The notes under the pieces were generated by a model. That model was not told where the DNA came from and ran no database searches. It was given only the letters and a program-made list of their open reading frames with translations. Below, in pieces: positions 7,457-53,604 of a DNA stretch of 64,000 bases. Position 1 is the stretch's first letter. Each line of letters starts with the position of its first letter. Origin of the DNA: an uncultured delta proteobacterium (lineage in GTDB: Bacteria > Desulfobacterota > RBG-13-43-22); NCBI GenBank assembly GCA_963743305.1, contig CAVUPH010000018.1, forward strand, positions 58,203 to 122,202, given 5' to 3'. Made by a program: the position numbers and the translations under genes.

Positions 7457-7479
7457 AAGGGCCTCTTTATAACAGATGG

Positions 7480-28296: not shown

Positions 28297-28320
28297 GGTG
28301 TGCCTCCCGTTTCTCGATTT

Positions 28321-29278: not shown

Positions 29279-29297
29279 TCCGGGCGAACCTCCTAAT

Positions 29298-37367: not shown

Positions 37368-37488
37368 GTCTGGAAAAATACTATAGGGGGGGAAAGAAAA
37401 CAAGGGAAAGGTCTAATCAAAAATATTAGAATTTTGGGTTCAAAAGTTAGACTTGTTTATCCCGTTGATATTTCCTACAATAGGGCCG

Positions 37489-38832
37489 ATGAAGCGCAAA
37501 TTATTAATCATCGGCGGAGGTCCGGCCTTTCAGGATAAGGTCCGGCACCACTTTCAGGATCGCTATGAGATAAAAATTTCCTCCTCCGGGAAAGAAGCCC
37601 TGCCCCCGCTCATGACCTGCAAACCCGCCATGGTCCTTTTAGGCGCCCCGCTGCCGGACACGAATAGCCTGGAAATACTTCAGCGGATTCAACAGGAATT
37701 CCCCCAATCCAAGACCATTCTCTTTTCCGCCTTCCAGGATATGGATACGACCATTCAGGCCATTAAATTGGGGGCCTATGATTATGTCCTGGAAGATATC
37801 GATCTCCAGGAATTGGATCATAAAATACAAAAGGCCATTCGTATCTTGACGTTAAATACCCAGATCGCTCCTCTCCAGGAACCGCCATCCCTTTCCGCTA
37901 ACGGATTTACGCTCATCGGCCAGAGCAAGGCCATGCGGGATATATATAAATTTATCGGACTGATCTCCAATACCACGGCCCTGGTCGGCATTCGAGGCGA
38001 AACGGGAACGGGGAAGAAATTGATGGCGCAGGTCATCCATCAAAACAGCCCCAATCGGGAAGGCCCCTTTGTCACCGTGGACTGCACCACGATTGTCGAA
38101 ACCCTGTCGGAGAGCACCCTCTACGGCCACGAAAAAGGCTCTTTTACCGGGGCCGTGGAGAGTCACCGGGGCTTATTTGAAATGGCGGCGGAGGGGACCA
38201 TTTTTCTCGATGAGATCGCGGATCTCCCGCTTTCCATGCAGGGCAAGCTCCTGCGTTTTTTACAGGATAAGGAATACCACCGTATCGGGGGCACTTCCCA
38301 GAAAAAATCCAATGCCCGCATCGTGGTCGCCACCAACCGGGACCTTTATCAGGCCATCGCCCAGGGTAAATTCCGAAAAGACCTCTACTACCGGCTCAAA
38401 GTTCTGACCATCTATATCCCTCCCCTTCGGGAACGCCGGGAAGACATTCCCCTCTTGATCCAGCATTTTTTACATAAGATCAATCGCGAGCACCATACCC
38501 GGGTATTGAAGATCGAAGACCGGGCGGTACAATTGCTGAGCGAATACGACTGGCCGGGAAATGTTCGGGAGATGGAAAATCTGCTGACCCTGGCCTGCAT
38601 TCTGGGCAAGGAGGAGGTCATTCTGGAGGAGACGGTCAAAGAGATTCTGAACCGCAGCCAACGCCTTCCTTATGATCGCCCGGATGTTTCCTCCCTGGGC
38701 GAAGCCGAGGAAGCGATCCTGAAAAGGGCTTTAAAAACAACGCAAGGGAATTTGACCCAGGCGGCCAAATTATTAAAAATTTCCCGGCCGACCTTGCGGA
38801 CTAAAATTCAAAAGTACCGGCTGGCTCTTTAA
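37489..38832 (+). CDS. Sigma-54 enhancer-binding protein with a degenerate receiver domain
   Basis: GETGTGK, GHEKGSFTGA, FLDEI, ATNRDL, WPGNVRE, Fis-type HTH; the REC-like N-terminus lacks the acidic pocket. Confidence 0.93.
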   Translation: MKRKLLIIGGGPAFQDKVRHHFQDRYEIKISSSGKEALPPLMTCKPAMVLLGAPLPDTNSLEILQRIQQEFPQSKTILFSAFQDMDTTIQAIKLGAYDYVLEDIDLQELDHKIQKAIRILTLNTQIAPLQEPPSLSANGFTLIGQSKAMRDIYKFIGLISNTTALVGIRGETGTGKKLMAQVIHQNSPNREGPFVTVDCTTIVETLSESTLYGHEKGSFTGAVESHRGLFEMAAEGTIFLDEIADLPLSMQGKLLRFLQDKEYHRIGGTSQKKSNARIVVATNRDLYQAIAQGKFRKDLYYRLKVLTIYIPPLRERREDIPLLIQHFLHKINREHHTRVLKIEDRAVQLLSEYDWPGNVREMENLLTLACILGKEEVILEETVKEILNRSQRLPYDRPDVSSLGEAEEAILKRALKTTQGNLTQAAKLLKISRPTLRTKIQKYRLAL

Positions 38833-38841
38833 GGGCAATAC

Positions 38842-38877
38842 GGCAAAGATCTTTCCGGTCCTGGCAAAGGTTTTTCC
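38842..38877. promoter_or_regulatory. Tandem candidate upstream activator sites
   Basis: GGCAAAGATCTTTCC (38842) and GGCAAAGGTTTTTCC (38863), imperfect palindromes 21 bp apart, about 75-110 bp upstream of the sigma-54 promoter. Confidence 0.6.
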
Positions 38878-38951
38878 AGGACGATCATCCGTTGAATAGG
38901 CACCTCTCAAAATAACCCCCTGAATTACTTCTATTTTTTTCTTGCGGTTTT

Positions 38952-38967
38952 TGGCATTGAACTTGCT
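38952..38967 (+). promoter_or_regulatory. Sigma-54 (-24/-12) promoter
   Basis: TGGCATTGAACTTGCT with exact GG-N10-GC spacing. Confidence 0.85.
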
Positions 38968-39055
38968 TATTTAAGGAAACCAGAGATTCGAATTTCTGAT
39001 AATTAAGCATGACCAGCAGCTAATCCCTCCATTCGGGAAGCGGAAAGGTGCACCT

Positions 39056-39808
39056 ATGCGATTGAAAGACAAAGTAGCCATCGTCACCGGAGCCGCCAAG
39101 GGCCTGGGCCGGGCTTTTTGCCTGGGTTTGGCAGGGGAAGGGGCCCGAATCATGGCCGTGACCCGCAAGGATCTGGACAACCTGGAGCAAACCGTCCGGA
39201 TGGTCCGTTCCCTGGGCGGGGAGGCCGAAATGATTCAAGCCGACGTGGCCCTGGAGGGAGATACCCGGGCCATGGCCCAGGAAACGCTCAAAAGATTTGG
39301 TCGCGTAGATATCCTGCTCAACAACGCGGCTATTTATGACGGGATCAAAAGGAAGCCGTTTTTTGAGATTGATCTGGCGGAATGGGACCTGGTTATGAAT
39401 GTGAATGTCAAAGGGGCCTTTTTATCCGCCCGGGCCGTCTTTCCTTTCATGAAAGAACAGGGTTATGGAAAGATCGTTAATCTGGCCTCGGAGGTTTTCT
39501 TTACCGGGTCCACCGGGTTTGCCCATTACGTGGCCTCCAAAGGGGGCATTATCGGTCTGACCCGAGCCCTGGCGGTGGAACTGGGACCGCATAATATCTG
39601 CATCAACTGTATTGCTCCCGGTTTTACCGATACCGAGGCCAGCCGGGGAATGGCCGATGTCTCCAAATACGATGTTTCCAAGACGCCTTTGAGACGGCTG
39701 GAAAAGCCGGAAGATCTGGTGGGGGCCGCCCTTTTTCTGGCTTCTCCGGAAAGTGATTTTATAACCGGGCAGACCCTGTTGATCGACGGGGGACGGGCCA
39801 TGCATTAA
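39056..39808 (+). CDS. Short-chain dehydrogenase/reductase (SDR)
   Basis: TGAAKGLG, NNAA, YVASK, NCIAPG, ITGQTLLIDGG. Confidence 0.95.
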   Translation: MRLKDKVAIVTGAAKGLGRAFCLGLAGEGARIMAVTRKDLDNLEQTVRMVRSLGGEAEMIQADVALEGDTRAMAQETLKRFGRVDILLNNAAIYDGIKRKPFFEIDLAEWDLVMNVNVKGAFLSARAVFPFMKEQGYGKIVNLASEVFFTGSTGFAHYVASKGGIIGLTRALAVELGPHNICINCIAPGFTDTEASRGMADVSKYDVSKTPLRRLEKPEDLVGAALFLASPESDFITGQTLLIDGGRAMH

Positions 39809-40041
39809 AACATAAGCGCAATTCATCCGGAATGGAGTCCGGAAGGATCACGAAATTCGAAGATCAAAAAGCGAACGTCCAAGCAGCTTCGAATTCGCCC
39901 ACCTTCACATGTTTCAAGGGCAGTTCGCCGACCCTGGACAAGAAAATAGGTTTTACGGCCAGGCACTAAAACGAATCGGGCAGAATCCGGGTCTCTCTTT
40001 CGAGAGACCCTAATTAATAACCACCAAAAGGAGGAGGAAGC

Positions 40042-41724
40042 ATGAAAGTGTATGATGTCGTCCCCGGTTTGGAATTTGAACCAGAAAGAGATTTTGCCCA
40101 ATCGCCCGCCTGGTTTTTGGACGGCACCCATTCCGTCCCGCCCTGGACCCCCATGTTTGGTTGGTTTTGGATCAACTTCTGCCGCCACGGTATGCAGTAC
40201 GGTGCGGAAAAGCTGAGCCTGCCGACGGTTAAGGGCTGGGATTGGCGTTTTCACCGAGGGGGTGGGTACCTGACCTTGTTGCTGGTCCACAGCGAGGAAG
40301 AAAAACAACGAAGAGAGACGGAATTTCGCAAGGCCATCCTCCCCTTTATTGAAGATTATGACGGCTTGTGGGGAGGACTGGTCAAGGAGATCTTGGGGCG
40401 TTATGAAAAGCTGAAGGCCCTGGATCTGGAGCAGGCTACCAACATTGAACTCCTGGATAATTTTGAAGAGACGATCAACACCTGCCGCCGGATGTGGGAA
40501 ATCCACATGTACATGATGTACGGCACCTATACGGCCTATATCCTTTTTGAAAACATGTGCCGGGAACTGGCCGGCATCGACGACACCTCCCCGGCCTTCC
40601 ATAAGCTGGTTTCGGGTTTTGACAATAAGGTCTTTCAGGTAGACCGCCGTCTCTGGGAGTTTTCCAAAAGGGCCCGAGAGGATGGACTGGCCGACACCAT
40701 CCTGGACAGCAAGCCCGCTGAAATCCAGGGCCGTCTCCAGGAATCGGCCAAGGGCAAAGAATTCATGAAAGACTTTATGGCCTTCATGAATGAAGACGGC
40801 TGGCGCATGCAACGGATGTCCGAGATGAATATGCCCACCTGGGTGGAAGACCCCACACCGGCCCTGGTCAACGTGAAACAGTTTCTTCAGAAGGGCGGGG
40901 GCTTTAACCTCGAGGCGGAGCGGGGCAAAATAACCGAACAGCGGAAAGCGGCGGAAAAAGAGGTTCTGGCCAAGGTTCCCCAGGATCAGCGGGGCTGGTT
41001 TGGTCGCTTGATGGTTTTGGCCCAAAAGAGCGGGGTCTTCAGCGAAGAGCATGACCACTACCTGGATCTCTATACGCATGCCATGATGCGTCGCAGCGCC
41101 TTGGGTCTGGGAAAGCGTTTCGCCCAGAAAGGGGCCCTCAACGAGGCCGACGATATTTTCTTCCTCATGCCCGATGAGGTGCGCCGGGCCGGGATCAACC
41201 CCGACCAATTTGATTTGCGCTACATTGTGGATCGTCGCAGAGCGGAGTGGCAGGAATGGCAAAAGACGCCCAACCCGCCGGCCTTCTTAAAGGAGGGTTT
41301 CGATCTGGATATGGCCATGGGGGTCCTGGTGCAATCCATGGATCCTATCGCCCTGAAAGTCGTGGTCGGTTCCATGCCCCAGGTCCGTCCGGAGCTCAAG
41401 GCCGACCTCTACGGGAGCTGCGGTTCCCCCGGAGTGGCCGAAGGTCCGGCCCGGGTGATCTTGAACGAAGACGAACTTCACCTGGTCGAAGAGGGAGATA
41501 TCCTGGTAGCGGCCAGCACCTCGCCCAGTTGGACCCCGGTTTTTTCCATGATCAAGGGCGTGGTCGTGGACCGCGGGGCCAGCCTTTCCCATGCCGCTAT
41601 TGTGGGAAGGGAATACGGCATTCCGGTGGTCATGAATGTCTTTGAGGGTACGGCCAAGATCAAGTCCGGTCAGCGGATCAAGGTCGATGCCAATCTGGGG
41701 GTCGTGTTTATTTTGGACAAATAA
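40042..41724 (+). CDS. Phenylphosphate-synthase subunit A-like phospho-His protein
   Basis: WFLDGTHSVPPWTPMFGW N-terminus; C-terminal PEP-utiliser mobile domain GSPGVAEGPARV...TSPSW...SHAAIVGREYGIP. Confidence 0.8.
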   Translation: MKVYDVVPGLEFEPERDFAQSPAWFLDGTHSVPPWTPMFGWFWINFCRHGMQYGAEKLSLPTVKGWDWRFHRGGGYLTLLLVHSEEEKQRRETEFRKAILPFIEDYDGLWGGLVKEILGRYEKLKALDLEQATNIELLDNFEETINTCRRMWEIHMYMMYGTYTAYILFENMCRELAGIDDTSPAFHKLVSGFDNKVFQVDRRLWEFSKRAREDGLADTILDSKPAEIQGRLQESAKGKEFMKDFMAFMNEDGWRMQRMSEMNMPTWVEDPTPALVNVKQFLQKGGGFNLEAERGKITEQRKAAEKEVLAKVPQDQRGWFGRLMVLAQKSGVFSEEHDHYLDLYTHAMMRRSALGLGKRFAQKGALNEADDIFFLMPDEVRRAGINPDQFDLRYIVDRRRAEWQEWQKTPNPPAFLKEGFDLDMAMGVLVQSMDPIALKVVVGSMPQVRPELKADLYGSCGSPGVAEGPARVILNEDELHLVEEGDILVAASTSPSWTPVFSMIKGVVVDRGASLSHAAIVGREYGIPVVMNVFEGTAKIKSGQRIKVDANLGVVFILDK

Positions 41725-41788
41725 AAAACCCATTGGGACCTTTCCTTCCCCGCGACGGGGAGGGAAAGGTCTTCCAGGAGCAGGTTCC

Positions 41789-42814
41789 ATGAGCGATAAA
41801 TGGATCTTTTGGTTTGAGGAATTGGGGACCGGGGACAACGACCGGGTAGGGAAAAAATGCGCCAACCTGGGGGAGATGACCCGACTGGGCCTGCGCATTC
41901 CCCCCGGATTTGCCATTTCCATAGACGGGTACGAACGATTTATGGCCGAAACCGGAGCCGGCGAGGAGATTCGGCGCTATGTCCAGGAAAACCGGGAGCA
42001 TTTAAAGGAAGTTAAAAATCAAATACTAGCCAGTCAGGCTATCCGGAACATTATCGAGTCCAAAGAAATGCCCCCGGCCATGAGGGAGGAGTTGTTCCAA
42101 TATTACGACCAGTTGAAAGAACGGGCCGGAGTCCAGGAGCTTTCGGTGGCCGTCCGGTCCAGCGGGGCGGTCAGCATGCCCGGCCAGATGGAGAGCTATC
42201 TGAATGTCCGCCGGAAGGAAGCGGTACTCCAGAAAGTGATCCAGGTCTGGGGAAGCGCCTTTACCACCCGGGCCATTGCCTTTCGGCTGGAGAAAGGGAT
42301 GGCCATGGAAAAGGCTCCCATCGGCATCGCCGTCCTGAAGATGGTGGAGGCCAAGTCCGCCGGCGTGGTCTTGACGGTCTTACCGACGAGCGGAGACCTC
42401 TCGAAGGTAATCGTGGAAGGCAACTGGGGTTTGGGTGAGAGTGTGGTCAGCGGCGAAATTAACCCCGATCAGTTTATTGTCGATAAAAGCGACGGGACGG
42501 TGGAAAGCACCGTCCATAGTAAAACCAAGATGGTGATTTATCATGAGGGGGGGACCGTTACCGCCCAGGTTCCGGAGGCCATCCAGGAAAAGCCCTGTGT
42601 CAACCCGGAGGAATTGAAAGAGATCGTGCGGATCGCCAAACAAGTGGAGGAGCATTTTCAAACTCCCCAGGACATGGAATGGGTCCTGGATGGCGTTCAA
42701 TCCATTCCGGAGAGTCTTTATTGGGTCCAGGCCCGACCGGCTAAATACGCCCAGGTCAAAGAAAAGGAATCCGAATATCTGGCGGAGCTGATGACCCGCC
42801 TGTTTAAGTTTTAA
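41789..42814 (+). CDS. Phenylphosphate-synthase subunit B-like ATP-binding protein
   Basis: VGKKCANLGEM, PPGFA, VAVRSSG, GQMESYLNV, GNWGLGESVVSG, QDMEW, VQARP: a stand-alone PEP-synthase N-terminal domain. Confidence 0.85.
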   Translation: MSDKWIFWFEELGTGDNDRVGKKCANLGEMTRLGLRIPPGFAISIDGYERFMAETGAGEEIRRYVQENREHLKEVKNQILASQAIRNIIESKEMPPAMREELFQYYDQLKERAGVQELSVAVRSSGAVSMPGQMESYLNVRRKEAVLQKVIQVWGSAFTTRAIAFRLEKGMAMEKAPIGIAVLKMVEAKSAGVVLTVLPTSGDLSKVIVEGNWGLGESVVSGEINPDQFIVDKSDGTVESTVHSKTKMVIYHEGGTVTAQVPEAIQEKPCVNPEELKEIVRIAKQVEEHFQTPQDMEWVLDGVQSIPESLYWVQARPAKYAQVKEKESEYLAELMTRLFKF

Positions 42815-42845
42815 TTCCTTTCTTCAGGCCGGAAAAGGAGAAACG

Positions 42846-43505
42846 ATGGCCATCCTGTTTACGCAATATTGGGATGTGATGCCCGGTAAATTTGATGCCT
42901 ATACGGCTTTTATTACCCAGGAGTACAATCCCGCCCTGCAGCAGTTGGGGATTCGGTTGGTGGGAGGGTATTATGTGGCGGTAGGCGAAGGTCCCCGGAT
43001 TGTGGCCGTAGCCACGGTGGATGAAACCGAGAATTTGCGGAAGACCATTTCATCCCCGGCCTACCGGGAGATTTCCAATAAATTACTCGAATACGTCTGG
43101 AAATATACCAATAAAGTCTATGTGCCCTCCGGACGCATCCAGGAAGGACCGTACCGCATCCAGACCGGGGTTTGGAAATTCAACCAGTATTATAATGTCC
43201 TCCGGGGTCAGGAGGAGGCCCATCGAAAGTTCGTCAAGGAAGAGTGCCTGCCGGGGATGGAAGAATTAAAGATCCCGCTTACCGGAGGGTGGCGTCTGGT
43301 CATCGGCAGCGGGCCGAGGATCCTGGCTGAAGCTACCGGGCGAAGTATTGTCGATATCGCCAGGGCCATTGATACCTCTCTCTTCAGAAAGTTGGTCAGG
43401 ACCCTGAAAAATGAGTTTGCCACGGACTACGGCAGCCGGATTCTGGCCCCGACGGGACGGATTGAAGTGCCGTACCTGATGAGCGAAATGATGAAGAAAT
43501 TTTAG
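42846..43505 (+). CDS. Hypothetical protein with two internal repeats (NIPSNAP/dimeric alpha-beta-barrel-like)
   Basis: Halves align: FTQYWDVMPG..GGYYVAVGEGPRIVA..VPSGRI and FNQYYNVLRG..GGWRLVIGSGPRILA..APTGRI. Confidence 0.7.
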   Translation: MAILFTQYWDVMPGKFDAYTAFITQEYNPALQQLGIRLVGGYYVAVGEGPRIVAVATVDETENLRKTISSPAYREISNKLLEYVWKYTNKVYVPSGRIQEGPYRIQTGVWKFNQYYNVLRGQEEAHRKFVKEECLPGMEELKIPLTGGWRLVIGSGPRILAEATGRSIVDIARAIDTSLFRKLVRTLKNEFATDYGSRILAPTGRIEVPYLMSEMMKKF

Positions 43506-43588
43506 CCGGAAGCTTTAGAATTTCCGGCTAAAATTTCTATATTTCCGTTTTTTTTATTTGGAAGAAAGGTGATCTGGAGAACAACGAC

Positions 43589-45531
43589 ATGATCCCGGAA
43601 CGGCCCATCTATTGGATGATCGGGGAGGTCTGGGTCTTTTATGTCCTGGCGACCCTGGCCGTCGGCCTGCTGGTCCTCGGAGTGGCCGCCCACCTCCGGG
43701 TGTGGATGAAAAGCGCTCCCGGGAGCCGGACGGTGTTTTCCGGGCCCGCCCTGGGGCAGGCCTTCCTGGATGTCTTCCTGGGGCGGACCGCCTTCAAAGG
43801 GGAGCCCTGGGCCGGTCTCATGCATTTTTTGATCTTCTGGGGATTTATCGTCCTCTTGATCGGCACTTCCCTGCTGGCCGGGCATGAATATCTCTCTCCT
43901 TTTCTGATCGGCCGGGCCCATCTGGTTTTCGAAGTCGCCATGGAAATCGGGGGACTCCTCCTCATTGCCGGTGTCGTCTGGGCCTTGATTCGTCGGTATC
44001 TGCAACGGGTCCCGCGGCTGGAACGCCGTCTGGAGGACGCCGTCATCCCGGTCGGTTTGCTGATCGTGGCCTGTTCCGGGTTCCTGTTGGAAGGCTTACG
44101 GCTGGCGGTTCAAAAGCCCGCCTGGGCCCAGTGGTCCTTTGTCGGGTCCGGGATCGCCGGTCTGATCCCCGAGCCGGCCGCCTTGACGACCTACCCCTAC
44201 CTCTGGTGGGGACACGCCCTGGTGAGTCTGGGTTTCATTGCCCTGATCCCCTACGGCAAACTCTTTCATTTGGTGGGAGGGCCGGCGGCCCTCTACCTCC
44301 ACCGCGCTCCCGAAATAAGGAAGCCGGCCGAATCCGAAGATGCTGGAAATGGAAGAAGGCCCCTCCCTGGCGGAGGTGGTTTTCTATGACGCCTGCATGC
44401 GCTGTGGACGCTGCGTTCAGTCCTGTCCCTCCAACGGCGCCGGCGAGCCCCTGGCCCCCCGTGATTTCGTCCAGGCCGCCCGTCGGGGTCTCTGGCAGGA
44501 ACATTCTCCCCAGGGCGATATCCGCTTTCTAACTCCCGAGAAGGCCCTCGAAGATAAAACGGCCTGGTACTGCACCACCTGCGCCGCCTGTCGGGAGATC
44601 TGCCCGGTGTATGGCGTCCCTTTCAAGCTGATAACGAAGCAGCGGACCCGACTGATCGAAGAAGGGAAGGAAGTCCCCGACCTGATGAATCAGACCCTGG
44701 AGCGGCTCTTCAACTATGACAACCCCTGGGTGTCTTCCAAGCGGGAACGGGCCGTCTGGGCCAAGGGTCTGGGGCTCCCGATCCTGAAAGCGGACGGGAA
44801 AGTGTCCCCCTTGTGTTATTTCGTGGGCTGCACGACCTCTTACGATGCCCGGGCCCAGGGGATCGCCAGGGCCTTCACGGACCTCCTGCAAAAGGCCGGA
44901 GTGCGCTTCGGGATCATCGGCGACAAGGAACCCTGCTGCGGAGATATCGGCCGGGTGACCGGGGAAATCGGACTGTTCCAGGAAAAGAGGGAAAACACCC
45001 TGGAACTCTTTGACCGCCTGGGTATCCGGGAGGTGGTCACCTCATCGCCCCATTGCTTCCACTCGCTTTTCCATGAATATCCCGGAAGACCCTTTGAGGT
45101 GCGGCACTATACCCTGGTCCTGAGGGAATTGATCGCCGCGAAAAGGCTGACTTTCAAAAGCGCCGGGACCCGGACAGGTGACCTTTCACGATCCCTGCTA
45201 TTTGGGCCGCCACAATCGCCTCTTCGATGAACCCCGGGAAATCATCCGCGCCCTGCCCGGCGTAACCCTGGTGGAAATGGCCCACCATGGGCCGAACAGC
45301 CTCTGCTGCGGCGGCGGCGGCGGACGGATGTGGCAGGGGACGGACCTGCGGGGGGAGGCGCGCATGAGTGAAATTCGGATGAAGGAGGCCCGGGACAGCG
45401 GGGCGGAAGTTTTGATTACCGCCTGCCCTCTCTGCCTGGTCATGCTGGAAGATGCCTGGAAGACTTTGGGTTTAGAAGAGAAGATGAAGGTCATGGATTT
45501 GAACGAGGTGGTATTGGAAGCTATGGGATAG
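43589..45531 (+). CDS. Membrane-anchored Fe-S oxidoreductase (NarI-like + 2x[4Fe-4S] + CCG domains; ETF:quinone oxidoreductase-like) with two +1 frameshifts
   Basis: MHFLIFWGF and WWGH..KLFH; CMRCGRCVQSCP and CTTCAACREICP; CCG, HDPCYLGR, CCGGGGG. Frame breaks near 44345 and 45178. Confidence 0.85.
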
Positions 45532-45564
45532 GGATGGTTGCCGGTTAACGATGCGTTTGCCGGT

Positions 45565-45595
45565 GTAGGTTGGGTAGCGTAAAACGAAACCCAAT
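45565..45595. repeat. GTAG-type REP-like hairpin
   Basis: gtaggttgggtagcgtaaaacgaaacccaat. Confidence 0.55.
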
Positions 45596-45625
45596 GGAGA
45601 GGCAAGATTAAATCAGTTCTTTGGC

Positions 45626-45704
45626 CGTCATCCCGGACTCGATCCGGGATCCAGGTGACTCGGAATCTGCACTTCCCTGGATTCCGGCCTTCGCCGGAAT
45701 GACG
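45626..45704. repeat. CGTC-type REP doublet
   Basis: cgtcatcccggactcgatccgggatccag...ctggattccggccttcgccggaatgacg. Confidence 0.85.
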
Positions 45705-45750
45705 ACGTCGGGTTCATTTTTAATTCGTTACGCGGGATGAAAGGAAAATT

Positions 45751-46734
45751 ATGAATGAGATTTTAATTTTGGCGGAGGGGCTGGGAGATGTTCCCGACAA
45801 GAAGACCCTGGAGCTCTTTCGGGCCGGGTCGGAGCTGGCCGGGGATCTGGGGATCCCGGTCTCGGCCGTCGTAGCGGGAGAAAAGGTAGCCTCCCTGGCA
45901 GCCGCGGCTGCCGCCTATGGGCTGCATAAGATCTACCAACTGGAGCACCCCCTGCTCCAAGGCTTTCAGCCGGAGGCCTGGGTGGGGGCCTTGGAGTGGC
46001 TGTGCCGGCAAATCAACCCCCGGATCCTGCTGATCGGCCAGGCGTATATCGGCCGGGAAGTGGCCCCCCGACTGGCCTTTCGACTCCAGACCGAGCTGAC
46101 CACCGACTGCCTGGGCCTGTCCATCGACCCGCAGGACGGTCTGCTGATCCGCACCAAGCCCATTTACGGGGGCAATGCCATCGCCACCTTGAAAGGAGCC
46201 GGTTCGCCGCAGATGGTCACCGTCCGGAAAAACGTCTACGAACCCCTGGAGGCGGGAAGCGGGTCGAGCGAAATAGTAGCGCTGACGCCCCCGCTGGAAG
46301 AATCAGCCATCCGGGTCAAATTCCTGAAGACGGTGCCGGAGGAAGTGGTCGAACTGGACAAGGCCAACATGGTGATTTCCGGCGGCCGGGGCATTGCCGA
46401 AAAGGAGGATTTCGAACTTTTGGAAGCCCTGGCCCGCGCTTTGGGCAAAACCCACGGCCAGGTGCTCATCGGCTGCAGCCGACCGGTGGTGGATAAATGC
46501 TGGCTGTCCTCCGACCGGCAGGTCGGATTGACCGGGTCGATCATCGCCCCGGACGTCTACCTGGCCATCGGCATCTCCGGGGCCATCCAACACCTGGTGG
46601 GCATGGTCCGGTCCAAGAAGATCATCGCCATCAATACCGATGCCGGCTGCAACATGTTCAAGGTGGCCGACTACGGCGTGGTGGAGGACTATAAGGACCT
46701 GCTGCCGGCCCTGGTCAAGAAACTGGAGGGATAG
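45751..46734 (+). CDS. etfA: Electron transfer flavoprotein alpha subunit
   Basis: ISGGRG, CSRPVVD, QVGLTG, YLAIGISGAIQHLVGM. Confidence 0.95.
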   Translation: MNEILILAEGLGDVPDKKTLELFRAGSELAGDLGIPVSAVVAGEKVASLAAAAAAYGLHKIYQLEHPLLQGFQPEAWVGALEWLCRQINPRILLIGQAYIGREVAPRLAFRLQTELTTDCLGLSIDPQDGLLIRTKPIYGGNAIATLKGAGSPQMVTVRKNVYEPLEAGSGSSEIVALTPPLEESAIRVKFLKTVPEEVVELDKANMVISGGRGIAEKEDFELLEALARALGKTHGQVLIGCSRPVVDKCWLSSDRQVGLTGSIIAPDVYLAIGISGAIQHLVGMVRSKKIIAINTDAGCNMFKVADYGVVEDYKDLLPALVKKLEG

Positions 46735-46736
46735 CC

Positions 46737-47531
46737 ATGAAGGAACCGAACATCATCGTCTGCGCCAAACAGATACCGGACCCCGAGGCGCCTTTCTCGG
46801 ACGTCCGGGTCGATGTGGAAAAAATGGAAGTCATCGTCGACGCTCCCAACGTCATCAGCCCTTACGATGAAAACGCCCTGGAGGCCGCCATCCGAATCAA
46901 GGAGGAACTGGGGGGCAAGATCACCGTTCTCAGCCTGGGCCGAAAGGTGGCGGACACGGTGCTGCGCAAGACCCTGGCGGCCGGGGCCGACGCTCTGATA
47001 CTCCTGGAAGACCCTTCCTTTGAGCGGCTGGACAGCAACTCCGTGGCCTACGTCCTTTCCCGGGCCATTCAGAAGATCGGCGCCTACGACCTGATCCTTA
47101 CCGGCAGACAGGCCGGAGACTGGGACGCCGGGCAGGTGGGGCTTATCCTGGCCGAGTGGCTGGGAATTCCGGCCATCAATCTGGCCCGGTCGGTAAAAAT
47201 TCAGGACGACCGGCTCCTGGTGGAAAAGACCGTGCCCGTAGGCTACGAGGTGGTGGAGACCGGATTGCCGGCCCTGGTCACGGTGAGTAACGAGGTGGGG
47301 GAGTTACGCTACGTTTCCCGGACCAAGATGATGGCCCTGCTCAAGCGCCCCATCCCGATCCCCAAGTGGGGGGCCAAAGACCTGGTGGACGATCCCGCCC
47401 GTCTGAAGCCGATCCAAATGCTGTCCCTGGCGCCGCCGGCGGACATGGGGCGGCAGTGCCTGATCATCGAGGGCGCCTCTCCGGAGGAAAAGGCGGAGAA
47501 GCTGGCCGCCGTGATTATGGAGATCCGTTGA
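46737..47531 (+). CDS. etfB: Electron transfer flavoprotein beta subunit
   Basis: IIVCAKQIPD, PYDENALEAA, TGRQAGDWDAGQVG, PALVTV. Confidence 0.95.
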   Translation: MKEPNIIVCAKQIPDPEAPFSDVRVDVEKMEVIVDAPNVISPYDENALEAAIRIKEELGGKITVLSLGRKVADTVLRKTLAAGADALILLEDPSFERLDSNSVAYVLSRAIQKIGAYDLILTGRQAGDWDAGQVGLILAEWLGIPAINLARSVKIQDDRLLVEKTVPVGYEVVETGLPALVTVSNEVGELRYVSRTKMMALLKRPIPIPKWGAKDLVDDPARLKPIQMLSLAPPADMGRQCLIIEGASPEEKAEKLAAVIMEIR

Positions 47532-47630
47532 GACTCCGTCCTTTTGAAAAGGGAGGTTGGGAGGGATTTTTGAAAAAGTCAAGGCCAAATTAATTCATAC
47601 CAAATAGAAAATAAACAGGGAGGATACAAG

Positions 47631-49271
47631 ATGCCTGACAAAACGTATGATGCAATTATTATCGGGGGAGGACATCATGGAACCACGATAGCCCCCTATT
47701 TGGCCAAAGCGGGTTTGAAAGTGGGAGTATTTGAACGGCTGGACCACCTGGGCGGTGGAGCGATCACGGAAGACCTCCCCTCACCGGGTTTCCGGGGGAA
47801 CTTTTGTGCCCACTTCACCCGGTATTACGGTCACCCGGCCTATAAGGAATTCAATCTCCGGGACGAAGGCCTGGAATACACTTTTCCCGATACCAACGAA
47901 GCCATCATCTTCGACGACGGGACCAGTTACGTGGCCTACGCCGCCTTTACCGTGGTCGATCCCCAAACCGGCGAAAGCCGGTTCAACGAGACCAATGTCA
48001 AGAAGACCCACGACCAGATCGCCCGCTTTTCCAAGAAGGATGCGGAGACCTATTTGGACCTGACGGAAAAATATAAGAACAAGTGGCGGGCCGCCTTCCA
48101 TAAGCACCGTTATTCGCCCCCCACACCCTACGGTGTGCCCGATGCCCTGGAGGAATTGTGTAACGATCCCCAGAGCGGCCTGGATGTGCCCATGCAGTTT
48201 ATGACCTGCAAGCAGATCGCTCGCTACTTCTTCGAGAGCGACGAACTGCGCATCCTGACCCTGCGGGGCTATCTGACCTCCTGGGGCTGTTTTCCGGACG
48301 ACGTGCCCGGCCTGATGGTCACCATCGCCACCATTCACCTGACCCTGGGCTGGGAACCGGCCGCCATCGCCAAGGGGGGGACCGGGGCCATCACCAGCGC
48401 CCTGGTTTCCGCCGGCCGCAAACTGGGGGTGGAGTATCATCTCAATTCCGAGGTTCAGCGAGTGCTCCTTGATAACGGCCGGGCCACAGGCCTCAAACTG
48501 CTGGACGGGACGGAAGTGACGGCCAAGCAACTGGTGGTCTCGGACAACGCCTCGCCCCAACTCTTCCTGCGGCTCATCGGTGAAGACCGGATCACCGAGG
48601 ACATGAAGCGCAAGGCCCGGGTCTATCAGTTCGACCGAGGCGAGCTGTTCTGGGGCACAGTGGGGGTCCACGAACTGCCCAATTACACGGCGGCCAAGGA
48701 CAACCCCGACGTGAACGCCACCCCCCGCACCTATTTCGCCCCCAAGGACCTGGGCTTCATGGAAGACAAATACCAGCACGAGATCTTTTTGTTCGGGATG
48801 CCCTCCAAGATGTTCATCCTGACCGCCCCGGACAGCATCTGGGACCGCAGCCGGGTGCCCGAGGGAAAATATTCCCTGCACGTGGAAGAGTTCACCTGCC
48901 CGGCCCGCCTCTTCTCCCGTAAGGAATGGAAGCAGATGACCCAGGAATTCGTGGACGTGCTCTTCGAGCGTTGGGCCGAGTACGCCCCCAACATGACCAA
49001 GGATAATCTGATCGTGCAGCGGATCACCAACCCCACGGACATTCAGGACACGCACCTGGATATGCGGGAAGGGGGCTGGTGTGAAGGCAACGTGGCCGGC
49101 GTGCAGAACGGGCGCTTCCGAGGTGTGCCCGGAGGATACCGGACCTTCATCCCGAACCTGTACATGTGCTCTTCCGGCGTGTATGGGGGGCCGGGCATCG
49201 GACGCGGGTCGAGCTATAACTGCTATAAGATGATAGCCGAGGACCTGAAACTGCCGATGCCTAAATACTAG
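47631..49271 (+). CDS. FAD-dependent oxidoreductase, phytoene-desaturase-like family
   Basis: IIGGGHHG...FER...GG FAD motif, KGGTGAITSAL, YRTFIPNLYMCSSGVYGGPGI. Confidence 0.88.
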   Translation: MPDKTYDAIIIGGGHHGTTIAPYLAKAGLKVGVFERLDHLGGGAITEDLPSPGFRGNFCAHFTRYYGHPAYKEFNLRDEGLEYTFPDTNEAIIFDDGTSYVAYAAFTVVDPQTGESRFNETNVKKTHDQIARFSKKDAETYLDLTEKYKNKWRAAFHKHRYSPPTPYGVPDALEELCNDPQSGLDVPMQFMTCKQIARYFFESDELRILTLRGYLTSWGCFPDDVPGLMVTIATIHLTLGWEPAAIAKGGTGAITSALVSAGRKLGVEYHLNSEVQRVLLDNGRATGLKLLDGTEVTAKQLVVSDNASPQLFLRLIGEDRITEDMKRKARVYQFDRGELFWGTVGVHELPNYTAAKDNPDVNATPRTYFAPKDLGFMEDKYQHEIFLFGMPSKMFILTAPDSIWDRSRVPEGKYSLHVEEFTCPARLFSRKEWKQMTQEFVDVLFERWAEYAPNMTKDNLIVQRITNPTDIQDTHLDMREGGWCEGNVAGVQNGRFRGVPGGYRTFIPNLYMCSSGVYGGPGIGRGSSYNCYKMIAEDLKLPMPKY

Positions 49272-49297
49272 ACCAAAAGCACCCGCATATTGGGTTA

Positions 49298-49366
49298 AAT
49301 TCGAAGCACGAAATCCGAAATCCGAGAATGTTTGTTTCGGATTTCGTGCTTCGAATTTCGAATTTA
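49298..49366. repeat. Heptamer-built palindrome
   Basis: aaattcgaagcacgaaatccga...tcggatttcgtgcttcgaattt. Confidence 0.8.
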
Positions 49367-49400
49367 ATCGTCGTAGTCTTCTCGATTCTTGAGGAAAGCA

Positions 49401-52046
49401 ATGCAGGTGATACAATTCCAGGTTAACGGCATCCCGCGCCGGGTAATTATCGATCCTCAGCGGAAGCTCAGCGAGGTCATTCGGAGAGAATTGAAGTTAA
49501 CGGGCACCAAGGAAGGCTGCAAGGAGGGGCACTGCGGCACCTGTACGGTCCTGCTGGATGGTCAGGCCGTTTTGGCCTGCAAGGTCCCGGTCATCAAGGT
49601 TCGCGGCCGGTCGGTGACCACCATCGAAGGGCTGGGCACTCCCGACCGGCCCCATCCGCTGCAACTGGCTTTTGCCAAGGCCGGGGCCATTCAATGCGGG
49701 TTCTGTACCCCGGGTCTGATCCTTCGCTCCCAGGCCCTGCTCACCAAAAATCCATCGCCTTCCCGGACGGAAATCCAAAGTGCCCTGCAGCCTCATCTCT
49801 GCCGCTGCACCGGTTACCAGAAGGTCTTCGAGGCCGTCGAACTGGCCGCCGCGGTTCTGCGCGGGGAAAGGGGCCCGATCTCCCTGCGAACGGAAGGGGA
49901 CCTCATCGGCCGGCCGGTGGTCCGCGGCGATGCCCTGAACAAGGCCACCGGCACGACCCTCTACGCCGACGACATCACCGTGGACGGCTGCTGCTTCCTG
50001 AAGGTCCTGCGCAGCCCTTACCCCCATGCCCAGATCCTGGAGATCGACAAGGCCGCCGCCGAGCAGGCCCCCGGGGTCCTGGCGGTCCTTACCGCGGCGG
50101 ATGTGGGCGGGACCAATATCCTCAAGATGGCCGGGGACGATCAACCCCTGCTCTGCGGGGACAAAGTACGCTACATCGGCGACCCCGTGGCCGCCGTGGC
50201 GGCCCGGTCCGAGGAGGAGGCCCGCCTGGCCCTGAACTTGGTCAAGGTGACCTATAAACCGCTCGAACCCCTGATGACCCCCGGAGAGGCGTTGGCGAAA
50301 GGCGCCCCCCGGGTGCACGACGATCGGGAAAACCTGTTTTTTCAGCAACCGATTATCTTCGGCGGGGCCGAGAAGGGCCGCCTGGAAGCTGCGTTTACCG
50401 TCGAGGCCCGCTACACCACGCAGACGGTCGACCACGGCTACCTCGAACCGGATTCCGGTATCGCTTTCATTCACGAAAACGGTCAACTGGTGATCGTTTC
50501 CGGGAGCCAGAATATCCATGCCCACCGCAAGACCATCGCCGGGGCCATCGGACTTACCCTGGAGCAGGTCCGGGTGATCCAACCGCCCATGGGAGGCGCT
50601 TTCGGCGGACATCTCGACGTCTCCGTAGGCGGCCTGATCGCCCTGGCCGCCTGGAAACTCCAAAAACCGGTGAAACTGGTTTTCACCCGGGCGGAGACCT
50701 TCCAGGCCACCACCAAGCGGCACCCTTTTTACCTGGACTTCAAAATCGGGGCCGCCAAAGATGGCACCTTTACCGGCCTGGAGGTCGATCTGTTGGCCGA
50801 CGGCGGGGCCTACAAGTCTTTTTCCAACAGCGTCACCACCCGGGGGCTGGTTCACGCCAGCGGTCCCTATCGCTTTCCTCAGGCCCATCTGCTCGGGCGG
50901 GCCGTTTACACCAACACGGTGGTCCGGGGCGCCATGCGGGGCTTCGGCGTTCCCCAGACCATTTTTGCCCTGGAATCGGCGGTGGACGAGCTGGCCCTGA
51001 AAATGGGGATCGATCCGCTGGAACTGCGCCTCAAAAACGCCTTTATCCCCGGCGATACGACCGTCTGCGGACAGGCCCTCACCGACGCCTTCGGCTATCG
51101 GGAGTGCCTGGAAACCCTGCGGCCCCACTACCGGCGGGCCCTGGATGAGGCCCGAACCCAGGGAACCGCGGAGGTGAAGCGGGGCGTGGGACTGGCCGGC
51201 ATCTGGTTCGGCCCCGGGCGCAGCGCCCCCGATCAGTCCGAGGCCTGGGCCGAGTTGCTTCCGGATGACCGGCTTCAGGTCTGGATCGGCGCGGCCGACA
51301 TGGGTCAGGGGGCGGAGACCCTGTTCTGGCAGGTGGCCGCCCAGACCATGGCCTTCCCCCTGGACCGGGTCCAGGTCTGCACTACCGACACCCGCTTCAC
51401 GCCGGACGGCAACTTTTCAGCGGGCAGCCGCCAGACCTATGTCTCGGGTCGGGCCGTCCAGATGGCGGTCGAAGAATTGAAAAACGCCATGGAGACCCAC
51501 GGGGTCGCCACCTATGAACAGATGAAGGCCAAGGACCTGCCCATGATCTACAAGGCGATCAACCGAACTGAAACCACCAAGCTCGACCCGGAAGACGGCC
51601 ACGGTGTGCCCTGGGAGACGTACTCCTTCGGGATCCAGATGGCGGAGGTGGCGGTGGAGATGAAGACCGGAAAGATCCGGGTATTGAAAGTGACCGCGGT
51701 AAGCGACCTGGGCACGGTGATCAATCGCCAGATCGTGGAGGGCCAGATCGAAGGCGCGATCGTCATGGGCCTGGGCTACGCCCTGTCGGAGGATTTCGTC
51801 TACAACGTGACCGACAGTTTCGCCAAATTCCGGATCCCGCGGGCCAAGGACGCCCCCCGCATGGAAGTGATCACCCTGGATATCCCCAGAAAGAAAGGTC
51901 CTTTCGGGGCTTCGGGCACGGCCGAATATGCCGATGCCCCCACGGCCCCGGCCATTATGAATGCCGTCGCCCAGGCTTGCGGGGCCCGTATCCGGGACCT
52001 GCCGGCCACGCCGGAGAAAGTTCTGGCAGCCCTTAATAACCCTTAA
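49401..52046 (+). CDS. Molybdopterin aldehyde oxidoreductase (Mop-like, fused 2x[2Fe-2S] + Moco domains, no FAD domain)
   Basis: GCKEGHCGTC, QCGFCTPG, CRCTGY, GGAFGG, AMRGFG, AGSR, EGQIEG, GPFGASGTAE. Confidence 0.92.
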   Translation: MQVIQFQVNGIPRRVIIDPQRKLSEVIRRELKLTGTKEGCKEGHCGTCTVLLDGQAVLACKVPVIKVRGRSVTTIEGLGTPDRPHPLQLAFAKAGAIQCGFCTPGLILRSQALLTKNPSPSRTEIQSALQPHLCRCTGYQKVFEAVELAAAVLRGERGPISLRTEGDLIGRPVVRGDALNKATGTTLYADDITVDGCCFLKVLRSPYPHAQILEIDKAAAEQAPGVLAVLTAADVGGTNILKMAGDDQPLLCGDKVRYIGDPVAAVAARSEEEARLALNLVKVTYKPLEPLMTPGEALAKGAPRVHDDRENLFFQQPIIFGGAEKGRLEAAFTVEARYTTQTVDHGYLEPDSGIAFIHENGQLVIVSGSQNIHAHRKTIAGAIGLTLEQVRVIQPPMGGAFGGHLDVSVGGLIALAAWKLQKPVKLVFTRAETFQATTKRHPFYLDFKIGAAKDGTFTGLEVDLLADGGAYKSFSNSVTTRGLVHASGPYRFPQAHLLGRAVYTNTVVRGAMRGFGVPQTIFALESAVDELALKMGIDPLELRLKNAFIPGDTTVCGQALTDAFGYRECLETLRPHYRRALDEARTQGTAEVKRGVGLAGIWFGPGRSAPDQSEAWAELLPDDRLQVWIGAADMGQGAETLFWQVAAQTMAFPLDRVQVCTTDTRFTPDGNFSAGSRQTYVSGRAVQMAVEELKNAMETHGVATYEQMKAKDLPMIYKAINRTETTKLDPEDGHGVPWETYSFGIQMAEVAVEMKTGKIRVLKVTAVSDLGTVINRQIVEGQIEGAIVMGLGYALSEDFVYNVTDSFAKFRIPRAKDAPRMEVITLDIPRKKGPFGASGTAEYADAPTAPAIMNAVAQACGARIRDLPATPEKVLAALNNP

Positions 52047-52077
52047 ATTCGAAACAAAGTTCAAATGATCAAAAGGG

Positions 52078-52166
52078 CTCCCCCTCCCTCGACGGGAGGG
52101 GGTTGGGGGGTGGGTGAATCCCGAATCCTCGTCCCTGCCGGCACTTCCCTGTCAAGGGGGAGGGAA
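52078..52166. repeat. C/G-tract REP-like doublet
   Basis: ccccctccctcgacgggaggggg...cttccctgtcaagggggaggga; related hairpins near 13239, 41742 and 47536. Confidence 0.65.
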
Positions 52167-52220
52167 TTTTTTGAATTTCGAATTTGAGATAAAATTTGAA
52201 TATCTTTGGCGATAAGTTGC

Positions 52221-53110
52221 ATGCTTATAAAACCCGACTGCATTTCTTGCATTCTGAAAATGGCTATTACGGCCATCCGGAACTTAACGACCGACGAAGC
52301 CGTTATCCGGGACCTGACCATTCAGATTTTGACCATTCCCGCCCTCCAGGGACGACAATGGGACCTCTCCAGTCCCGAGGTGATCGAACAGGTCATGGAA
52401 AAAATCGTGCGGCGCTTTCCATTCCCCGGACCCGTTCCAGGCTTTGAAGTTAGAACAAAATCGGATCGGTCAAGCCCTCTATCCGACGGCTTGAAAAAAT
52501 TGGTGCAGGAGGCCGATGACCCCTTGCAGGCGGCGGTAAAAATGGCCATCCTGGGGAATGCCATCGACCTCATGATTTCGGATCAGTCCCTGGACGTGGA
52601 AAAAACGCTGGTTCAAGGGCTGCGAGCAACCTTGGTCCGGAGAAACCGATCGCGGTCTTTAAGGAAAAACTCGGGCAAACCCGTTCCCTGGTTTACCTGG
52701 GGGATAATTGCGGTGAGATCGTTTTCGATAAGTTGTTATTGGAAATTATTCGAGAGACCTATCATCCGCAGGTGGTCTTTGTGGTCCGAAGCGTTCCCGC
52801 GCTGAATGACGCCACCCGAAGCGAAGCGGAAATGGTGGGACTGGATCAGGTGGCGACCATTATGCCCAATGGGCTTCAGGCCCCGGTCCCGGGCACCATT
52901 CTATCCCGGTGTTCCGAAGAGTTGAGGGAATTGATCCGGGAGGCCGATCTGGTCATTTCCAAGGGCGGCGGCAATTTCGACACCTTGGAAGGGGAAAAGG
53001 ATTTGGGTGCGGATATATCGTTTATGCTGCTGTCCAAATGCATCCCCTATTGCCACTATTTTCAAACCGGAATGTTTCAACCGATCCTGGCCAATTTTTT
53101 CACCTCCTGA
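52221..53110 (+). CDS. DUF89/ARMT1-family metal-dependent phosphatase, frameshifted
   Basis: PDCISC, AILGNAID, LGDNCGEIVFD (other frame), PALNDAT, ISKGGGNFDTL; indels between about 52410 and 52680. Confidence 0.82.
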
Positions 53111-53198: not shown

Positions 53199-53268
53199 TT
53201 GACATGGCCATTTATTGGGTCATATAATACCCGTAAGTAGCTTAAAGGGGGTTATATATGACCAATAA
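53199..53268 (+). promoter_or_regulatory. Sigma-70 promoter and inverted-repeat operator of the hipBA-like operon
   Basis: TTGACA-18-TATAAT; arms ttattgggtcatataataccc and gggttatatatgaccaataa cover the -10 box and the start codon. Confidence 0.75.
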
Positions 53269-53602
53269 TTCACATTTTCAATCCAGCCTTCCCCAGGAAG
53301 TGGCAGATGCCGTTTCCCGATTGGGTGAACACATTCGAATCGCCAGGAAACGGCGCGGAATGACCCTGGAGGAGGTGGCCTCCCGGATGTTCGTGACCCG
53401 AAAGACTTTGTCGCGCCTGGAAAACGGCGATCTCGGCGTTTCTCTGGCGGTCCTGGCCTCGGCCCTGTGGGTGTTGGGGTTTGAGAAAGACCTCCTGGAA
53501 ATCGCCCATCCGGAAAAGGACCAGGTGGGGATATACCGGGAGCGGCAACGCCTTCCCCAGCGGGTGCGGCCTTCCAAAGCCAGCGATGATTTGGACTTCT
53601 GA
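53258..53602 (+). CDS. XRE-family HTH antitoxin (HipB-like)
   Basis: LGEHIRIARKRRGMTLEEVASRMFVTRKTLSRLENGD. Confidence 0.88.
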   Translation: MTNNSHFQSSLPQEVADAVSRLGEHIRIARKRRGMTLEEVASRMFVTRKTLSRLENGDLGVSLAVLASALWVLGFEKDLLEIAHPEKDQVGIYRERQRLPQRVRPSKASDDLDF

Positions 53603-53604
53603 TC

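Follow-up and report, generated by a model that had tools for sequence, protein, structure and literature searches.

A candidate oxygen-independent, carboxylase-free phosphate-tagging route for an alkylphenol-type substrate in uncultured Desulfobacterota

Introduction

Catabolism of phenolic compounds that is initiated by phosphorylation is known from anaerobic phenol carboxylation and from the aerobic Cre and Hpe pathways. The Cre pathway of Corynebacterium glutamicum reportedly comprises the kinase CreHI, the cytochrome P450 system CreJEF, alcohol and aldehyde dehydrogenases and the phosphohydrolase CreD. Here we analyse a gene cluster of an uncultured delta proteobacterium (phylum Desulfobacterota, assembly GCA_963743305.1, contig CAVUPH010000018.1) which encodes a two-component kinase resembling phenylphosphate synthase (PpsAB) together with a set of oxidoreductases and phosphatases. 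The cluster lies in a stretch of 64,000 nucleotides (contig positions 58,203 to 122,202), hereafter the window, whose own numbering is used throughout. A preliminary description, made from the letters of the window, had proposed that the cluster encodes an O2-independent phosphorylate-oxidise-dephosphorylate route.

The cluster, which is widespread among uncultured anaerobic bacteria, most likely encodes an O2-free, carboxylase-free phosphate tagging of a phenol-like compound, a so far undescribed route; our literature searches found no description of this gene combination or cluster. We give an even chance to the reading, by analogy with Cre, that the operon serves sigma-54-controlled catabolism of a hydroxylated aromatic with an oxidisable side chain and so forms an O2-free counterpart of Cre that acts on an alkylphenol-type substrate, cresol or another alkylphenol being the simplest candidate. 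If this is correct, phosphorylation-initiated phenolic catabolism also exists in an anaerobic, carboxylase-free version built from flavin, electron transfer flavoprotein (ETF) and molybdenum or tungsten enzymes.

Results

The two kinase subunits are encoded next to each other on the forward strand. The PpsA-like protein (40042-41724) combines a substrate-binding domain resembling that of rifampin phosphotransferase (RPH) with a phosphohistidine swivel domain, the latter being its sole Pfam match (PEP-utilizers domain, residues 483-553), while residues 233-559 match RPH (5FBS) in a phmmer search. Its AlphaFold2 (AF2) model (pLDDT 89.5) has a full-length match to RPH only (TMq 0.69-0.70), and for HpeH, too, RPH is described as the only full-length structural match (PMC12167813). 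The ATP-grasp domain (PPDK_N, 2.1e-85) resides on a protein of its own, the PpsB-like subunit (41789-42814), and matches RPH's ATP-grasp domain; the open reading frame (ORF) spans 341-392 amino acids (aa), and a start at 41789, which gives 341 aa and matches the ORFs of the related loci L003 and L004, is probably the correct one. The stretch DRGASLSHAAIVGRE / GASLSHAAIVGRE of the PpsA-like protein contains His517, which does not vary among 44 aligned sequences. In PpsA and CreH the swivel His is preceded by Ser (PMC12167813), an arrangement also found at His517, and the strict motif [TS]..GG...H has no match among the window proteins, its GG reading RG-A in the PpsA-like protein. Because of the separate ATP-grasp protein, the full-length match to the RPH fold and the invariant His517, features set out in PMC12167813, we assign the window proteins, from sequence and model, to the two-component small-molecule dikinases (PpsAB/CreHI/HpeHI, RPH-like); CreHI is mentioned as a related kinase in PMC12167813 and in bioRxiv 10.1101/2020.01.08.898148. 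The 120 best relatives listed for the PpsA-like protein are 82-92% identical to it, come from metagenome-assembled genomes (MAGs) and bear the generic name 'PEP-utilizing enzyme'; all 120 (P0001-P0120) carry the precomputed Pfam domain PF27448. A steroid 25-hydroxy kinase was considered as a further homologue and dropped, as it is an unrelated enzyme (PMC8449060).

The same genome encodes a second kinase of this family in a canonical anaerobic phenol cluster (locus L083, contig C10, positions 694-17884). This cluster contains genes for a LysR regulator, PpsA (628 aa), PpsB, UbiD, an AMP-forming CoA ligase, UPF0261, UbiX, a second UPF0261 and an HD-domain protein, and ends with the FAD and molybdenum subunits of an enzyme resembling 4-hydroxybenzoyl-CoA reductase. 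The window's PpsA-like protein is only 26.7% identical to the C10 PpsA (over 596 aa) and its PpsB-like protein 34.6% identical to the C10 PpsB; against the characterised HpeI (9GOJ) the former PpsB scores 174.9 bits and the latter 266.2 bits.

We searched a species-representative genome collection with each PpsA and obtained 224 relatives of the window protein (window set) and 216 of the C10 protein (C10 set), keeping the best 80 loci of each; a relative of the window kinase was encoded in 224 of the 252 stretches matched. A tree (IQ-TREE quick mode, LG+G4) was built from 60 of the 158 extracted sequences, namely the window and C10 proteins, those window-set rows that were below 78% identity or C10-type, every third of the other window-set rows and every fourth C10-set row. 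The window-type proteins formed a clade of 35 rows with a support of 99 in the SH-like approximate likelihood ratio test (SH-aLRT) and the C10-type proteins one of 21 rows (SH-aLRT 100), the branches between the two being 1.72 and 2.74 long. By this phylogeny the window kinase is not a phenylphosphate synthase and belongs to a clade separate from the UbiD-linked PpsA. The preliminary description had named as grounds for its rejection a kinase grouping with true phenol PpsA and a carboxylase cluster elsewhere; a ppsAB-ubiD-ubiX-hcr cluster does exist, on C10, whereas the window kinase does not group with its PpsA.

Gene neighbourhoods separate the two kinase types as well. Neighbouring genes were scored with tblastn (E<=1e-6, 45% or more of the query covered, best non-overlapping match), and the counts refer to those loci, 41 window-type and 54 C10-type, in which the kinase gene is flanked by 6 kb or more on either side. 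PpsB was found in all of them (41/41 and 54/54), whereas UbiD adjoined the kinase in 54/54 C10-type loci and in a single window-type one (L048), where it stands beside a second, C10-type kinase. Conversely, the gene for a 219-aa barrel protein and that for the CrtI-family flavoprotein were each present in 38/41 window-type and 0/54 C10-type loci, a short-chain dehydrogenase/reductase (SDR) in 36/41 as against 3/54, and an aldehyde oxidiser in 33/41 as against 1/54. The last function is supplied by a tungsten-type aldehyde oxidoreductase (AOR) in 24 of the window-type loci and by a Mop-type molybdenum enzyme in 11; where the Mop-type gene is missing, Pfam searches on L064, L014, L024 and L057 place the AOR between the SDR and kinase genes. 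A phosphatase is likewise kept in 33/41 loci, as an HD-domain protein in 25 and as DUF89 in 11; the corresponding count of 0/54 for C10-type loci is not meaningful, since flanks of 7 kb were searched and the HD gene of C10 itself lies 8.7 kb downstream of ppsA. Gene order varies among the window-type loci and the gene set is kept: the slot after the barrel-protein gene, for instance, is taken by ABM and then HD in 15 loci, by DUF89 in 9 and by the membrane oxidoreductase in 12. As the exchanged enzymes (Mop for AOR, HD for DUF89) are not homologous, these patterns argue that aldehyde oxidation and cleavage of a phosphate ester are functions which the pathway requires. A PaaK-like CoA ligase gene lies within the cluster in 5 of the 80 loci.

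The joint occurrence of kinase, barrel protein, flavoprotein and SDR in 36-38 of 41 loci, the kinase clade and the near absence of UbiD (1/41) speak for the route put forward in the preliminary description; the molybdenum enzyme and DUF89, which it had counted as fixed parts, turned out to be less constant, each being retained in 11/41 loci and often replaced by AOR (24/41) or HD (25/41), respectively.

The cluster design also recurs with another kinase lineage (17 loci, of which some duplicate one contig; L166-L179 are among them, for example L167:2022-13000 and L166:2-11000), which is 39-40% identical to the window's PpsA-like protein and has PpsB encoded before PpsA. In these 17 loci the kinase genes stand among CrtI-family, SDR, AOR and DUF89 genes, with ABM as a further neighbour and, in one locus, EtfAB and the membrane oxidoreductase; UbiD occurs in 0/17 and the barrel protein in L165 only, where some 7 kb separate its gene from the kinase genes upstream. 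In two MAGs of the Desulfatiglandales (L057:6224-7804) the PpsB-like protein is 526 aa long and carries an N-terminal response-regulator receiver domain; in L057 its gene adjoins those for a 1016-aa HdrA-like FAD/FeS protein and a tungsten AOR.

The 219-aa protein (42846-43505) has no match in Pfam or NCBIfam. Its AF2 model (pLDDT 91.3) is a tandem ferredoxin-like alpha+beta barrel, for which Foldseek returned tandem ABM-type 'putative monooxygenases', HemQ/Cld-like proteins and an anthrone-oxidase-like protein (TM about 0.6); the ESM Atlas gave a weak NIPSNAP lead only (11-17% of cluster members). Its distribution among the loci indicates that it is a specific companion of the window kinase lineage.

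The flavoprotein (47631-49271; Pfam Amino_oxidase, DAO and NAD_binding_8) belongs to the CrtI/phytoene-desaturase family and is a putative catalyst of O2-independent C-H oxidation. Its best NCBIfam match, the CrtO ketolase, stays far under the cut-off. Related loci contain two flavoprotein subtypes. That of the window has EtfB directly beside it in 14/15 loci, while the other is accompanied in 27/29 loci by a paralogue, which forms a second flavoprotein, and by an ORF of 101 aa, with no adjacent ETF. The paralogous pair with the 101-aa ORF is found in 29 of the 80 related loci, the window having one flavoprotein gene; in six loci, alphaproteobacterial ones among them, the second subtype has an adjacent ETF instead. 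Limonene dehydrogenase CtmAB and the steroid delta24-desaturase, which oxidise activated C-H bonds without O2, share the covalent-FMN motif G-F-L/R-X-N/S-T/L-H-A (PMC11061730). The paralogous partner matches it exactly in 23 of 27 ORFs (GFLHNTHA), and all 15 ORFs of the window subtype carry an N-terminal GFRGNFCAH, one residue longer and with Cys-Ala-His, which resembles it; the strict pattern GF..[NS][TL]HA has no match among the window proteins, the near-match appearing under a relaxed pattern. A flavoprotein implicated in benzene activation (PMC13416013) was examined as a possible relative and set aside, as it belongs to the unrelated glycolate-oxidase/VAO family.

An electron path from flavoprotein through ETF to quinone had been suggested originally; ETF and the membrane oxidoreductase accompany one flavoprotein subtype only. 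In the window EtfA (45751-46734; ETF and ETF_alpha domains) and EtfB (46737-47531; ETF domain) follow a membrane oxidoreductase (43589-45531) which combines, by Pfam on its three ORF pieces, a NarI-like part with two [4Fe-4S] and two CCG domains and may link ETF to quinone.

The Mop-type enzyme (49389-52046) is a single chain with two [2Fe-2S] and molybdenum cofactor (MoCo)-binding domains (Pfam) and no FAD domain, as in the Mop-type architecture. Its best solved relative is the MOP of Desulfovibrio gigas (586 bits, full length), and the NCBIfam model pterin_aldehy scores 786 bits, under its cut-off of 1100. The SDR (39056-39808; adh_short_C2, 2.9e-60), for which no NCBIfam model reached its equivalog cut-off, would be the alcohol dehydrogenase of the pathway. 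Two phosphatase candidates are encoded: a DUF89/ARMT1-type protein (52221-53110), whose homologues directly follow the barrel-protein gene in 9 other loci, and an HD-domain phosphohydrolase (36732-37403, reverse strand; HD domain, 1.3e-05), divergent from the regulator gene; the HD gene had gone unlisted in the preliminary description, and its product shares 30% identity with the HD protein encoded in the C10 phenol cluster.

Among 401 sampled genomes of the phylum, 21 encoded a window-type kinase (at least 63% identity) and were counted as carriers; two others, which have paralogues of 41-44% only, were left out of this count. Oah/BamA (TIGR03200), the ring hydrolase of the benzoyl-CoA pathway, was found in 21/21 carriers, 20 of them above the cut-off and one with a truncated match (461.8 against 464.45), compared with 93/380 non-carriers; within the window's own family it was present in 8/8 carriers and 1/7 non-carriers. 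With the alphaproteobacterial carriers (5/5), all 26 carriers tested have Oah, as against 24% of non-carriers, a co-occurrence which favours an aromatic substrate without proving it. An HcrA-like protein (E<=1e-220) was encoded in 13/21 carriers and 73/401 genomes overall, and a C10-type PpsA (42% identity or more) in 20/21 carriers and 72/401 overall.

The cluster as a whole forms one co-directional run, and ORF list, Pfam, NCBIfam and pattern searches bore out the original account of it, with all named genes on the forward strand behind a sigma-54 promoter. The run is preceded by the gene for an NtrC-type sigma-54 activator (37453-38832; Pfam receiver, AAA+ sigma-54 interaction and Fis-type helix-turn-helix (HTH) domains). 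The -24/-12 promoter (38952-38967, forward strand), TGGCAT-N5-TTGCT, reads TGGCATTGAACTTGCT and lies about 90 bp 5' of the SDR start; it is the sole match of TGGCAY-N5-TTGCW in the window, where 0.04 would be expected, and the exact pattern TGGCAC-N5-TTGC has zero matches there. An activator homologue adjoins the cluster in 10 of the 80 related loci, and TGGCAY-N5-TTGCW stands upstream of the SDR gene in 10/10 of these; on this conservation we regard the promoter as real. The same pattern occurs about 40-220 bp upstream of canonical ppsA in 16/80 C10-type loci (L097-L157), 65/80 of which have a sigma-54-activator homologue beside them. UbiD, UbiX and CBS domains gave zero matches on the cluster's contig in a genome-wide search, in line with the carboxylase-free cluster originally described, and none of the genome's 30 CBS matches, which could have indicated a PpsC-like third subunit, lies on that contig (C18).

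The membrane oxidoreductase and DUF89 had been taken as single genes. The families are indeed present, whereas the oxidoreductase is split across three frames (43589-44323, 44379-45239 and 45151-45525; tblastn), with frameshifts near 44323-44379 and 45151-45239, and DUF89 across two (52221-52625 and 52637-53107; tblastn, Pfam on both pieces), with one frameshift at 52625-52637. In the close relatives L004 and L003 the oxidoreductase is a single ORF of 646-656 aa, and in L003, which is 97% identical, the flavoprotein gene is split instead. Furthermore, contigs of relatives in RNA libraries have one base fewer at 44343 and at 45176, positions that either fall in the ORF overlaps marking the oxidoreductase frameshifts or are no more than 2 bases away from them. 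Because of these intact ORFs, the different split in L003 and the one-base gaps, the frameshifts in both genes are probably assembly indels rather than signs of decay. A P-type cation ATPase further along the window, encoded in two overlapping ORFs (57692-58303 and 58288-59817) downstream of a Na+/H+ exchanger and a TrkA-domain ORF (55566-57695), shows a probable further indel, consistent with an error-prone assembly.

The metatranscriptome contigs, which stem from relatives, contain parts of all cluster genes (88-99% likeness); as such they are no proof of transcription and allow no ranking of the genes, and uncovered parts carry no meaning. A GC-rich hairpin pair at 45600-45700, between the membrane oxidoreductase and etfA, and a long TTCGAA-rich hairpin at 49296-49365, 3' of the flavoprotein gene, stand out in these contigs by a very high summed depth and numerous loose ends, and look like repeat elements common to many organisms or loci. 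A terminator-like hairpin (52144-52163) separates the Mop-type gene from DUF89. Directly after the cluster, behind a perfect sigma-70-like promoter (53199-53228), an Xre-type HTH gene and a HipA-like kinase gene (53258-54816) likely form a toxin-antitoxin pair. Upstream, translational coupling links the HD gene to one for an acyl-CoA dehydrogenase (35518-36735), and genes for an ADP-forming acyl-CoA synthetase (724 aa) and GNAT-domain proteins are found at 27523-31655; the synthetase, which may provide a CoA-activating step, also adjoins the cluster in a Roseiarcus MAG (L074:16680-20621), L005 and L006.

Discussion

From the observed genes and families, the conserved promoter, the gene association, the enzyme swaps and the co-occurrence with Oah, we infer as follows which reactions make up the pathway, in what order they occur, which way the electrons flow and what the substrate is. 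The two kinase subunits, PpsB-like with its ATP-grasp domain and PpsA-like with His517, would move the beta-phosphate of ATP onto a phenolic hydroxyl with release of AMP and Pi, possibly assisted by the 219-aa barrel protein. The CrtI-family flavoprotein, taking over by analogy the role of the P450 in the Cre pathway, would then oxidise a side-chain C-H bond with oxygen derived from water, its electrons passing through EtfAB and the membrane NarI/FeS/CCG oxidoreductase to the quinone pool. The SDR would turn the resulting alcohol into an aldehyde, the Mop-type enzyme (AOR in other loci) the aldehyde into an acid, and the HD or DUF89 phosphatase would cleave the phosphate off, leaving a hydroxy-aromatic acid that could be activated with CoA and enter the benzoyl-CoA pathway. 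The narrower proposal that this amounts to a new O2-independent oxidation of methyl or alkyl groups, for phenols unable to use the quinone-methide route, in which an aryl phosphate is made and then attacked by a water-hydroxylating flavoenzyme of the limonene-dehydrogenase type, we put forward as tentative.

Several points weigh against this pathway. Known flavin-dependent p-cresol methylhydroxylases (PCMH) require the free phenol, and abstraction of a benzylic hydride should become more difficult once the hydroxyl is esterified with phosphate. For sulfate reducers and syntrophs the conversion of ATP to AMP is expensive, and the window flavoprotein has neither the exact covalent-flavin motif nor a partner subunit. 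Of the two phosphatase genes, DUF89 contains a frameshift and is preceded by a terminator-like site, and HD is encoded on the reverse strand in coupling with the acyl-CoA dehydrogenase gene. Since the carriers are kin and general aromatic degraders (20/21 with a phenol-type kinase), the association with Oah may mark the lifestyle of the lineage only; 4-hydroxybenzoate cannot be the product everywhere, because an HcrA-like gene was not found in 8 carriers. Oxidation of the methyl group of m-cresol in a Desulfotomaculum strain is reportedly described in older literature. In the paper on this strain's genome, fumarate addition is predicted instead (PMC4148979).

An alternative that we hold to be unlikely is that the phosphate makes the hydroxyl a leaving group, for a reductive dephosphorylation or an elimination, with the ETF/membrane complex feeding the flavoprotein or the flavoprotein acting on the resulting alkene. 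ETF/FeS-CCG systems are reversible in principle, and the cost of ATP to AMP would suit a difficult reaction, as in phenylphosphate carboxylation. A kinase-plus-elimination logic is moreover described for anaerobic cholesterol degradation (PMC8449060, PMC7411048), but the steroid kinase converts ATP to ADP and is unrelated (PMC8449060), the characterised relatives of the flavoprotein are oxidative (PMC11061730) and the phosphatase kept in 33/41 loci would undo the activation, while the conserved SDR and aldehyde oxidiser suit an oxidative side-chain route. It is also conceivable, if rather improbable, that the dikinase, like Pas-alpha/beta from Desulfatiglans anilini, is a synthase of the phenol or aniline type, that UbiD enzymes encoded elsewhere carboxylate its product and that the neighbouring oxidoreductases serve another step or pathway. 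Pas-alpha is only 26.7% identical to Pps-alpha (PMC7500099), the same figure as between the window kinase and the C10 PpsA, and might be nearer to the window lineage, a point which also counts against the Cre-like reading; D. anilini draws carboxylase subunits from separate clusters, and two UbiD genes lie elsewhere in the window's genome. Nevertheless, the ani cluster has a UbiD-type gene beside pas-alpha (PMC7500099), unlike all but one of the 41 loci here, and across several gene orders, as in the second kinase lineage, the kinase keeps the company of flavoprotein, SDR, aldehyde oxidiser and phosphatase. Among the best 80 of the 224 loci, whose lowest identity was 66%, no record was from D. 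anilini, and a kinase of a third type used as query gave 10 loci, none of them from that organism.

The substrate itself might not be aromatic. A terpenoid, steroid or alicyclic alcohol could be phosphorylated, and its allylic methyl group hydroxylated by the limonene-dehydrogenase-like flavoprotein and oxidised to an acid, a reading to which we give little credence. It would accord with the characterised relatives of the flavoprotein, which act on limonene and a sterol side chain (PMC11061730), with the secondary alcohol of rifampin, phosphorylated by a member of the dikinase family (the RPH fold match), and with the acyl-CoA dehydrogenase and ADP-forming acyl-CoA synthetase upstream in the window, L005, L006 and L074; against it stand Oah in every carrier tested, the PaaK-like ligases within some clusters and the phenolic substrates of the nearest homologous kinases of known substrate (PMC12167813). 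Support of a molybdenum hydroxylase acting on a hydroxy-N-heterocycle, like the 3-hydroxypyridine dehydrogenase HpdA of Ensifer adhaerens, is very improbable indeed, although two PEP-synthase-like genes beside the molybdenum hydroxylase are essential for the conversion in that organism (bioRxiv 10.1101/2020.01.08.898148) and the window cluster does encode an enzyme of the xanthine-oxidase family. The latter has the Mop-type, that is, the aldehyde oxidoreductase architecture and occurs in 11/41 loci only, 24/41 having the tungsten AOR, which is no ring hydroxylase, and Pfam detected no SRPBCC or FAD subunit in the cluster. Where an aromatic or heteroaromatic substrate had been proposed, the Oah co-occurrence speaks for the aromatic option and the heteroaromatic one found no support.

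Should the narrower proposal of a new alkyl-group oxidation be confirmed, it would constitute a third anaerobic strategy for cresols and alkylphenols, beside PCMH and fumarate addition, in which different isomers or substituents would be handled by two or more kinase lineages and which would have a wide distribution in Desulfobacterota of soil, groundwater and sediment and in some Alphaproteobacteria. Assignment of the cluster would give a function to a new dikinase clade, to a new tandem-barrel family and to a new branch of limonene-dehydrogenase-like flavoenzymes, and would fill a gap in models of carbon cycling and contaminant degradation in anoxic soils, aquifers and sediments.

With the PpsAB(C) systems of Thauera, Geobacter and Desulfatiglans, represented in this genome at C10:1816-17884, the window-type clusters share the protein family, the subunit split, the Ser before the swivel His and, in many loci, sigma-54-type promoters; they differ in sequence (27% and 35% identity for the two subunits), in forming separate clades, in lacking a UbiD/UbiX neighbour and in having the barrel protein in place of the CBS protein. 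The HpeHI of Rhodococcus rhodochrous GD02 (PMC12167813, PMC9618137) is likewise an RPH-like two-component dikinase that starts phenolic catabolism, with a dedicated phosphatase acting later, but the Hpe system has a biotin carboxylase and a phosphatase of the NagD/HAD type. CtmAB and the delta24-desaturase (PMC11061730) are flavoproteins annotated as members of the phytoene-dehydrogenase family, and their motif is exact in the partner protein of related loci and near-exact in the window; in contrast to the alpha/beta pair of CtmAB, the window has a single flavoprotein gene, linked to EtfAB and the membrane oxidoreductase. The Cre pathway, whose kinase we liken to that of the window by description, offers the closest parallel in design, with a two-component dikinase without carboxylase, enzymes for the steps from methyl through alcohol and aldehyde to acid, and a phosphatase. 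Unlike Cre, the window cluster has no P450 domain in any ORF (Pfam), its place being taken by a CrtI-family flavoprotein together with ETF and the membrane oxidoreductase, the window-type clusters use SDR, molybdenum- or tungsten-dependent aldehyde oxidoreductases and HD or DUF89 phosphatases, and their hosts are strict anaerobes or organisms of the benzoyl-CoA pathway.

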